Position numbers and translations under genes: made by a program. The notes below the pieces were generated by a model. The model saw only the letters and a program-made list of their open reading frames with translations. It was not told where the DNA came from and made no database searches. A DNA stretch of 1,542 nt from Escherichia coli (GTDB lineage Bacteria; Pseudomonadota; Gammaproteobacteria; Enterobacterales; Enterobacteriaceae), in the NCBI RefSeq assembly GCF_003334335.1, contig NZ_QOWQ01000103.1; one strand, 5' to 3'. Shown one piece after another: positions 844 to 1,542 of this stretch. The first letter of the stretch is position 1, and every line of letters begins with the position of its first letter.

Positions 844-867
844 TAAGCCCGGTAAAATACGGGCTTA
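844..867 (+). promoter_or_regulatory. Stem-loop in the tnpB-tnpC intergenic region that includes the first base of the tnpC start codon; possible translational control element
   Basis: Read directly: taagcccg (844-851), loop gtaaaata (852-859), cgggctta (860-867). This is a perfect 8-bp stem. It is not followed by a T-tract, so it does not look like an intrinsic terminator. Confidence 0.4.
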
Positions 868-1542
868 TGAACGACATCTCTTCTGACGACATCTTCCTGC
901 TAAAACAGCGCCTGGCCGAACAGGAAGCGCTGATCCACGCCCTGCAGGAAAAGCTGAGCAACCGGGAGCGCGAAATAGACCATCTGCAGGCGCAGCTGGA
1001 TAAACTCCGCCGGATGAACTTCGGCAGTCGTTCCGAAAAAGTCTCCCGCCGTATCGCACAAATGGAAGCCGATCTGAACCGGCTTCAGAAAGAGAGCGAT
1101 ACGCTGACTGGTAGGGTGTATGACCCGGCAGTACAGCGTCCGTTGCGTCAGACCCGCACCCGTAAGCCGTTCCCTGAATCACTACCCCGTGACGAAAAGC
1201 GACTGTTGCCTGCGGCGCCGTGCTGCCCGAACTGCGGCGGTTCACTGAGCTATCTGGGCGAGGATACCGCCGAACAGCTGGAGTTGATGCGTAGCGCATT
1301 CCGGGTTATCCGGACGGTACGGGAAAAACATGCCTGTACTCAGTGCGATGCCATCGTGCAGGCACCTGCACCTTCGCGGCCCATCGAGCGGGGTATCGCC
1401 GGACCGGGGCTGCTGGCCCGCGTGCTGACCTCGAAGTATGCAGAGCACACCCCGCTGTATTGCCAGTCAGAAATATACGGCCGGCAAGGTGTGGAGCTGA
1501 GCCGTTCACTGCTGTCGGGCTGGGTGGATGCATGCTGCCGGC
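867..1542 (+). CDS. tnpC: IS66-family transposase TnpC (Orf3), N-terminal ~225 codons; 3'-partial, continues beyond the window
   Basis: ATG at 867-869 opens a frame with no stop to the window end; it is absent from the ORF track because it lacks a stop. My translation reads MNDISSDDIFLLKQRLAEQEALIHALQEKLSNREREIDHLQAQLDKLRRMNFGSRSEK...LPAAPCCPNCGG...HACTQCD...YAEHTPLYCQSEIYGRQGVELSRSLLSGWVDACC. This shows a leucine-rich coiled coil followed by a CxxC...CxxC zinc-finger-like motif, as expected for the IS66 TnpC N-terminus. The DDE catalytic domain would lie downstream of the window. Confidence 0.85.
   Translation, partial: MNDISSDDIFLLKQRLAEQEALIHALQEKLSNREREIDHLQAQLDKLRRMNFGSRSEKVSRRIAQMEADLNRLQKESDTLTGRVYDPAVQRPLRQTRTRKPFPESLPRDEKRLLPAAPCCPNCGGSLSYLGEDTAEQLELMRSAFRVIRTVREKHACTQCDAIVQAPAPSRPIERGIAGPGLLARVLTSKYAEHTPLYCQSEIYGRQGVELSRSLLSGWVDACCR

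Follow-up and report, generated by a model that had tools for sequence, protein, structure and literature searches.

A putative promoter for a leaderless tnpC mRNA within a start-codon hairpin of ISEc8 and some IS66-family relatives

How the transposase gene tnpC of an IS66-family insertion sequence (IS) is expressed is the question raised by ISEc8, in which the tnpC start codon is predicted to be buried in an RNA hairpin and no Shine-Dalgarno (SD) sequence precedes it. IS66-family elements, ISEc8 and its relatives among them, belong to the most abundant insertion sequences in the chromosomes and plasmids of E. coli and Klebsiella. Expression of their three genes (tnpA, tnpB and tnpC) is essentially uncharacterised. 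We analysed a 1,542-nt stretch of Escherichia coli DNA (assembly GCF_003334335.1, contig NZ_QOWQ01000103.1), hereafter the window. By megablast it is the left 1.5 kb of ISEc8: thousands of E. coli records with that annotation match it at 99.9% identity, and 3970 of the 5426 complete E. coli genomes contained copies. The reading that we favour, with a probability of roughly 0.55, is that tnpC has a promoter of its own in the tnpB-tnpC spacer, that it is translated from a leaderless mRNA, and that the hairpin silences tnpC on RNA reading through from tnpAB.

The initial annotation, made from the window alone, placed the tnpB stop at 815-817, the tnpB-tnpC spacer at 818-866 and the tnpC ATG at 867-869, and this map agrees with the list of open reading frames (ORFs) and with the NCBI Prokaryotic Genome Annotation Pipeline (PGAP). 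It also described a perfect 8-bp hairpin whose 3' arm ends on the A of the ATG. The hairpin is real and strong and does cover the start codon; its stem, however, measures 9 bp and extends to the U. On the plus strand, the 5' arm ATAAGCCCG (843-851; RNA AUAAGCCCG) is followed by an 8-nt loop, GTAAAATA (852-859; RNA GUAAAAUA), and by the 3' arm CGGGCTTAT (860-868; RNA CGGGCUUAU), both arms being 9 nt long and 100% complementary. A867 and U868 of the tnpC ATG are paired within the 3' arm. The segment 840-872 folds at -15.4 kcal/mol (z = -5.60), a value equalled by 0 of 200 shuffles. The larger segment 820-900 is not marginal either (-22.7 kcal/mol, z = -3.33), and its minimum free energy fold adds a short, weak outer helix between UGUCA (834-838; UGUCG in most relatives) and the GACAU region in tnpC codons 2-4 (872-876). 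All nine stem pairs are predicted with probabilities of 0.90-1.00 in contexts of 200 to 1542 nt. Stem length taken alone is borderline against chance, as 5% of dinucleotide-shuffled windows contained a perfect stem of 9 bp or more closed by a loop of 3-10 nt. The hairpin is judged non-random because it is sited on the start codon and is conserved, and it is the conservation that carries the argument.

Relatives were gathered from plasmids, from one genome per species and from viral contigs. A scan of the viral contigs with a TnpB alignment returned nearly all near-identical ISEc8 or ISEc22 copies and added 3-4 variants. ISEc8-like junctions were represented in the collection by 25 distinct variants, drawn from more than 15 genera, all with the same 49-nt spacer and with a mean column identity of 93%. 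Standard pairs filled 96.4% of the cells of the 9-bp helix, and pairing fell to 28-42% when the 3' partners were slid as a control. Compensatory changes were seen at two pairs, 847/864 (G-C to C-G in 2 variants) and 849/862 (C-G to U-A in 1 variant), and a third pair, 850/861, alternated between U.G (15 variants), C-G (3) and U-A (3), with a mismatch in 4. The covariation score was matched in 3 of 500 shuffles. In the outer helix, 91% of the cells were paired across the variants and two pairs were altered on both sides. Owing to the wobble pairs, 24 of the 25 variants fold more stably as the sense hairpin than as the antisense one (mean -10.6 versus -7.1 kcal/mol), and this strand asymmetry argues for a structure of the sense RNA rather than a DNA palindrome or an antisense element. 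The weakest stems were those of L035, L039, L046 and L048, and three of these four copies have a broken tnpC frame. Judged by this pattern of substitution, the 843-868 hairpin is a selected structure of the sense-strand RNA.

The missing SD sequence, also pointed out in the initial annotation, was borne out by pairing energies. In the 20 nt before the tnpC ATG the best duplex with the anti-SD sequence has -3.0 kcal/mol, no better than background (mean of -2.57 kcal/mol for background 20-mers of the window), and the spacer (818-866) is accordingly treated as free of an SD. The same held for the family as a whole. We collected 73 distinct tnpB-tnpC junctions, with TnpB proteins 65-100% identical, from Enterobacterales, Aeromonas, Burkholderiales and others, and their mean of -2.59 kcal/mol is equal to the background.

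The loop of the hairpin, to which the initial annotation gave no role, contains the hexamer TAAAAT (853-858, plus strand), which is invariant in 25 of 25 ISEc8-like variants even though positions of the stem vary among them. We propose it as the -10-like element of a tnpC promoter. In 71 of the 73 junctions a hexamer of the form TAnnnT ends 6, 7 or 8 nt before the tnpC ATG; by chance, such a pattern at such a distance precedes only 3-5% of the ATG triplets in the same loci. Eleven hexamers occur (TAAACT, TAAAAT, TAATAT, TAAAGT, TAGACT, TAACAT, TAAGCT, TATCCT, TACCAT, TAAGAT and TAATCT), and the differences among them are confined to the three inner positions. Counting 5 distant members brought in for their fit, 77 junctions show the pattern; all 77 start tnpC with ATG, and in 76 of them the base before it is a pyrimidine. 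Upstream of the hexamer, TTGTAA is found at 16-18 nt in 36 members, mostly of Burkholderiales (at 17 nt in 33 of them), and the intervening spacer is constant in length and variable in sequence. Members of the ISEc8-like and ISEc22-like groups have no -35 element at the right distance; instead, 27 of their 31 variants carry a TG at the extended -10 position, two bases before the hexamer (-15/-14; 850-851 in the window, CG in ISEc8).

Sigma-70 promoters are characterised by T at -12, A at -11 and T at -7, a spacer of 17 nt to TTG, and a start 7-9 nt further on, at a purine with a pyrimidine before it; for leaderless mRNAs the rule is an obligate AUG. The signature of the junctions appears to be that of sigma-70 promoter geometry with the transcription start on the ATG. 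Lack of an SD together with an obligate ATG is better explained by a leaderless mRNA. In the window the predicted start lies at 865-867 (plus strand), 7-9 positions past the hexamer, as judged by this geometry and by the Sinorhizobium meliloti homologue described below; within it A867, which is preceded by T, is the favoured candidate.

In the Burkholderiales-type elements L049-L094 the last sense codon and the stop codon of tnpB are invariably TTG TAA, and this sequence apparently doubles as the -35 element of the putative tnpC promoter, an overlap of coding and regulatory functions. TTG is the final tnpB codon in 32 of 32 TTGTAA members, and it makes up only 13% of the Leu codons in these genes of 63% G+C. 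In L049 and in L193 from Acetobacter, the arrangement TTGTAA-N17-TAnnnT-N6-ATG is kept although TTGTAA is not the tnpB stop.

The geometry extends beyond the close relatives. When distant members are added, 20 of 33 sequence lineages fit it strictly. Among distant TnpB relatives (47-56% identity), L176, L183-L186, L191 and L193 fit, and L175, L179, L181, L182, L187, L188, L194 and L195 do not. Two of the fitting members, L184 from Paracoccus and L185 from Roseibium, carry a 7-bp inverted repeat (GGATTCC/GGAATCC) between the -35 and the -10 positions and not at the start codon. In ISCro1 (L012 and L013, 1022-1060) an SD-like GAGGA lies only 1-2 nt from the ATG and belongs to a hairpin, GUGAGG/CCUCAC, as its 5' arm; the AUG sits in the loop of this hairpin. 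ISCro1 also has TAAAGT 6 nt before the ATG, and by this spacing it seems to fit the leaderless geometry rather than initiation led by an SD.

Experimental support comes from a distant element. In differential RNA sequencing of S. meliloti 1021, the supplementary Table S1 lists a leaderless start ('lmTSS', ATG, distance 0) for the 'putative transposase' genes SMb20541 and SMb21085, with transcription start site (TSS) coverages of 418 and 836, respectively (Schlueter et al. 2013, BMC Genomics 14:156, PMC3616915). An ordinary TSS with a coverage of 107 is given for the upstream gene SMb20543 (tnpA). The main text of that paper is silent on transposases, and the leaderless tnpC start appears only in Table S1. 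We found that SMb20541 is an IS66-family TnpC (442 bits, NF033517) and that the TnpB of the same element (107 bits, NF033819) is 47% identical to that of ISEc8 over 88 residues. An ORF of the size of TnpA lies upstream, which gives the order tnpA-tnpB-tnpC. SMb21085 is a second copy of tnpC. The 62-nt spacer has no SD and reads TTGGCT-N17-CTATAA-N6-ATG. A hairpin is predicted there too (-11.5 kcal/mol, z -2.66); its 3' arm holds the mapped start, with the A and the U of the AUG paired. At least one IS66-family tnpC is thus experimentally leaderless in the same architecture as ISEc8. The S. meliloti junction resembles that of ISEc8 in its gene order, its SD-less spacer, its -10-like hexamer shortly before the ATG (CTATAA, 6 nt) and its hairpin on the AUG; it differs in the length of the spacer, the sequence of the stem, the recognisable -35 at 17 nt and the mapping of its start. 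An antisense start, SMb_TSS1029, was also mapped in the 5' part of tnpC at this locus (L196; pSymB 569771-569868, plus strand) and reads towards the tnpC start (PMC3616915). Antisense control may be a further layer in the IS66 family.

From these observations we propose that tnpC of ISEc8 is transcribed from a dedicated, weak promoter of sigma-70 type, the -10 element of which would be the loop of the hairpin. Its RNA would begin at A867 or within 1-2 nt of it and would be leaderless. Such a transcript would lack the 5' arm and leave the AUG free; in RNAs beginning at 864-867, the A and U of the AUG are predicted to be unpaired (paired probability 0.02-0.06). Read-through RNA from tnpA-tnpB or from outside the element would carry both arms and fold the hairpin (probability at least 0.9), and with the internal AUG buried and devoid of an SD, tnpC would remain untranslated from it. 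Ribosomes that terminate at the tnpB stop, 26 nt before the stem, would leave the hairpin closed. We infer the activity of the hexamer as a promoter in ISEc8, the exact start and the block of read-through translation by the hairpin. In ISEc8, C850 replaces the T of most relatives, which gives a C-G pair instead of U.G (-14.3 versus -12.1 kcal/mol). This change strengthens the stem and removes the T at -15 of the TGn motif, and tnpC expression would fall on both counts.

The initial annotation had suggested that transposase translation is kept low or is regulated by mRNA structure. This part stands in so far as the stem is strong, selected and occludes a start codon without an SD. Its picture of tnpC being throttled on the tnpAB read-through mRNA fares less well, since the promoter pattern in the loop and the leaderless start in S. 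meliloti favour an mRNA of its own.

Several points weigh against the proposal. In ISEc8 the -35 position reads TGGTTG (2 of 6 matches) and the extended -10 reads CG, not TG. A generic promoter scan of the window found no promoter, a scan that demands a -35 match, of which ISEc8 has none. With a gap of 8 nt between the hexamer and the ATG, A867 only just falls within the usual range of start positions, and a start at U865 or U866 would leave a leader of 1-2 nt. Enterobacteria have few leaderless mRNAs and translate them poorly. About 10 of the 33 sampled lineages (about a third) lie outside the promoter geometry, and L008, L187 and L188 use an SD with a GTG start. The hairpin on the AUG is absent from ISEc22/ISKpn24-type elements and from many Burkholderiales members, which indicates that it is dispensable. 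Lastly, the mapped leaderless ends are confined to SMb20541 and SMb21085, whose element is distant from ISEc8, and these two starts may not be independent, as reads may have multi-mapped to identical copies.

The hairpin is indeed less widespread than the promoter-like core. When the segment from -34 to +14 was folded at each junction, z was below -2 in 41%, and in ISEc22/ISKpn24 the AUG is open (paired probability 0.1-0.2); a family-wide AUG hairpin was therefore rejected. We then compared lineages by pairing the flank upstream of the hexamer with the segment from the hexamer to codon 2, against shuffled flanks. Seven of 23 sequence lineages gave z below -1.64, where about one was expected (binomial 9e-5). 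Stems of unrelated sequence flank the hexamer and reach the AUG with their 3' arm in other members: UGACCG plus ACUC in ISEc23 (-12.0 kcal/mol, z -5.5), AUGACAGGGU in Rhizobium leguminosarum (-16.1 kcal/mol, z -2.5), CCCAUG in Aeromonas (z -2.6) and GGCAUGUGCG in Cupriavidus (Burkholderiales). On this comparison the hairpin is an addition that has recurred around a promoter-like core, and it is the core that is conserved more widely. For the family at large, we give about even odds to the view that a large part of it expresses tnpC as a separate leaderless unit from a conserved spacer promoter, embedded in a hairpin in several lineages.

Other explanations of the junction have to be considered. 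It is possible, though unlikely, that tnpC is translated solely from a tnpA-tnpB-tnpC mRNA on which the hairpin and the lack of an SD keep initiation rare, with relief coming perhaps from ribosomes terminating at tnpB or from a trans factor, and with some other role for the loop hexamer. The strength, conservation and position of the hairpin over the AUG and the lack of an SD at tnpC are all consistent with this, as is the ATGA overlap that couples tnpA to tnpB and makes the three genes look like an operon; ISEc8 also has no recognisable -35 and no TG of an extended -10. However, such an arrangement leaves unexplained why conservation is higher in the loop hexamer than in the stem and follows T-A-n-n-n-T, why this hexamer keeps 6-8 nt from an ATG that has a pyrimidine before it, and why TTGTAA lies at exactly 17 nt across a spacer of variable sequence. 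The distance from the tnpB stop to the stem is beyond the reach of a terminating ribosome, and in a distant IS66 element the primary 5' end of tnpC is mapped on the ATG.

The inverted repeat could instead act as DNA, as an operator over the -10 at which a dimeric protein (the helix-turn-helix protein TnpA or a host factor) represses the tnpC promoter. A palindrome centred on a -10-like hexamer is a common layout of repressor sites, and stem sequences that differ among IS66 lineages are what co-evolving operators would show. Even so, we regard an operator as improbable: the ISEc8-like clade swaps base pairs (G-C to C-G, C-G to U-A) in a way that alters both half-sites, the T/G combination at 850/861 in most variants is a mismatch in a DNA palindrome and a wobble pair in sense RNA, and in 24 of 25 variants the RNA hairpin is the more stable one on the sense strand. 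Still less probable is an element at an RNA end, by which the tnpAB mRNA would be stabilised or processed at its 3' end, or an antisense RNA begun inside tnpC would be terminated on the minus strand. The moderately U-rich UUAUUCUGUG comes after the G+C core when the minus strand is read, and the antisense TSS of the S. meliloti element points towards the tnpC start. On the plus strand, however, there is no U-tract (the tail is GAACGACA, or UUAUGAAC if the G+C core alone is taken as the stem), a terminator scan found none at the hairpin on either strand, which fails as an intrinsic terminator, and the minus-strand hairpin is the weaker one in 24 of 25 variants. A promoter scan of the ISEc8 window found no promoter-like site on the minus strand, and the loop and spacing signature would be left unexplained. 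The least credible account, to which we give hardly any weight, is a fortuitous inverted repeat, functionless and retained by recent common descent. An equally long stem does arise in 5% of shuffled windows, the 25 variants are similar (93% mean column identity) and the stems of L035, L039, L046 and L048 are weakened; but the compensatory changes and wobble pairs, the unrelated stems at the same place in other IS66 lineages, and the broken tnpC frame in three of the four copies with the weakest stems speak against it.

Some other features of the junction were tried and set aside. TTGTCA (833-838) was ruled out as a -35 element, its spacer being 14 nt, and a minus-strand reading of the loop as TATTTT was ruled out by its loss in relatives with the hexamer TAAACT. 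The direct repeat GTAAA(C), shared by the tnpB stop and the loop, was rejected both as a repeated protein site and as a take-off and landing pair for ribosomes. Its first copy varies among ISEc8-like elements, with TAA or TAG as the stop and CTG or TTG as the Leu codon, and the relative frames of tnpB and tnpC also vary, with spacers of 29, 30, 48 and 49 nt.

Self-restraint by RNA structure has precedents in other insertion sequences. Fold-back inhibition was reportedly described in IS10/Tn10 by Davis, Simons & Kleckner in 1985, and a structure acting on read-through RNA in IS50/Tn5 is said to have been described by Krebs & Reznikoff in 1986 and by Schulz & Reznikoff in 1991; both are reportedly covered in the review of Mahillon & Chandler from 1998. 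The predicted ISEc8 fold would mask the transposase start in longer transcripts in the manner of these IS10/IS50-type structures, in which a hairpin hides the initiation region of the transposase in transcripts arriving from upstream. A further likeness would be a promoter of the element within the structure, a putative one in ISEc8, whose own transcript lacks the 5' arm and is translatable. In IS10 and IS50, however, the structure is at the outer end, guards against external promoters and protects an SD-dependent start. In ISEc8 the hairpin occupies an internal junction, that of tnpB with tnpC, and would shield tnpC from the tnpAB transcript of ISEc8 itself. Its loop holds the putative -10, and the start codon under its protection lacks an SD. 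We propose that ISEc8 applies the self-restraint logic known from IS10 and IS50 to a junction between its own genes and joins it to leaderless initiation.

Known leaderless mRNAs offer a second comparison. The mRNAs of lambda cI (from PRM) and of Tn1721 tetR are naturally leaderless, and such mRNAs require a 5'-terminal AUG (Brock et al. 2008; O'Donnell & Janssen 2001, as cited in PMC3616915). The IS66 junctions resemble leaderless genes in the -10 element 6-8 nt before the ATG, the lack of an SD and the strict ATG after a pyrimidine. ISEc8 differs in that tnpC is third in an apparent operon rather than first in a transcription unit, and in that its 5' end is predicted.

The organisation of ISEc8 is otherwise that of a canonical IS66 element. 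This organisation was reportedly set out by Han et al. in 2001 for IS679 and by Gourbeyre et al. in 2010 ('Route 66'), both of whom are said to treat the three genes as one unit. ISEc8 shares with it the ends that start with GTAAGCG, the 8-bp target duplication, the ATGA overlap of tnpA and tnpB, and a tnpC that lies a short distance downstream in a variable frame. Full-text searches on IS66 and ISEc8 turned up no tnpC promoter, leaderless tnpC mRNA, start-codon hairpin or study of tnpC expression. A search on leaderless transposase mRNAs brought up only a Bordetella pertussis transcriptome paper with no bearing on IS66, and the multi-omics supplement for Klebsiella MGH 78578 yielded no IS66 or leaderless entries. 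A leaderless, separately promoted tnpC in much of the IS66 family is apparently undescribed.

If our proposal is true, the dosage of the transposase would be set apart from that of TnpA and TnpB, and read-through from neighbouring genes would be unable to activate transposition. Activity could rise where leaderless translation is favoured, with the supply of TnpC tied to the capacity of the cell for such translation. The model also offers annotators a rule for recognising the true start of tnpC.

The remaining features of the window, all on the plus strand, agree with this assignment. The left terminal inverted repeat of ISEc8 occupies 1-25 and begins with GTAAGCGTACAGCC. The gene tnpA (93-473) encodes an IS66-like accessory protein (NCBIfam NF047595, 97.7 bits) and tnpB (470-817) the IS66 accessory protein TnpB (NF033819, 120 bits); the two overlap by ATGA at 470-473. 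The 5' part of tnpC (867-1542) encodes an IS66-family DDE transposase, with its start at 867 in PGAP and RefSeq; its match to NF033517 is partial because the window ends inside the gene. No other in-frame start was found upstream of ATG 867. The PGAP names of the three genes agree in the copies of 99.9% identity, and ends and genes together place the element in the IS66 family. For tnpA, the ORF list uses a GTG at 72, where PGAP uses the ATG at 93. A convincing SD is absent at both, the anti-SD energy at ATG 93 being -4.2 kcal/mol.

A scan of the window with Rfam 15 gave no match to a curated covariance model at the hairpin. Its sole match, isrJ at 470-535 on the minus strand (20.7 bits against a gathering score of 37, E = 0.54), is almost certainly noise. 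An imperfect 21-nt inverted repeat (411-431/449-469; 71% complementary, 17 nt apart) abuts the ATGA overlap, and it could affect the translational coupling of tnpB. A copy of ISEc8 with 99.9% identity to the window was located in yehR on the chromosome of E. coli E2865 (L001, 1501-3789; 2289 bp). The 25 positions of its left end match the reverse-complemented right end at 19, and it is bounded on both sides by the 8-bp target duplication GAACGGCA. Its tnpC encodes 461 amino acids and is 153 nt shorter than the 512-amino-acid tnpC of relatives. With its ends and duplication intact, this copy looks like a mobile deletion variant.

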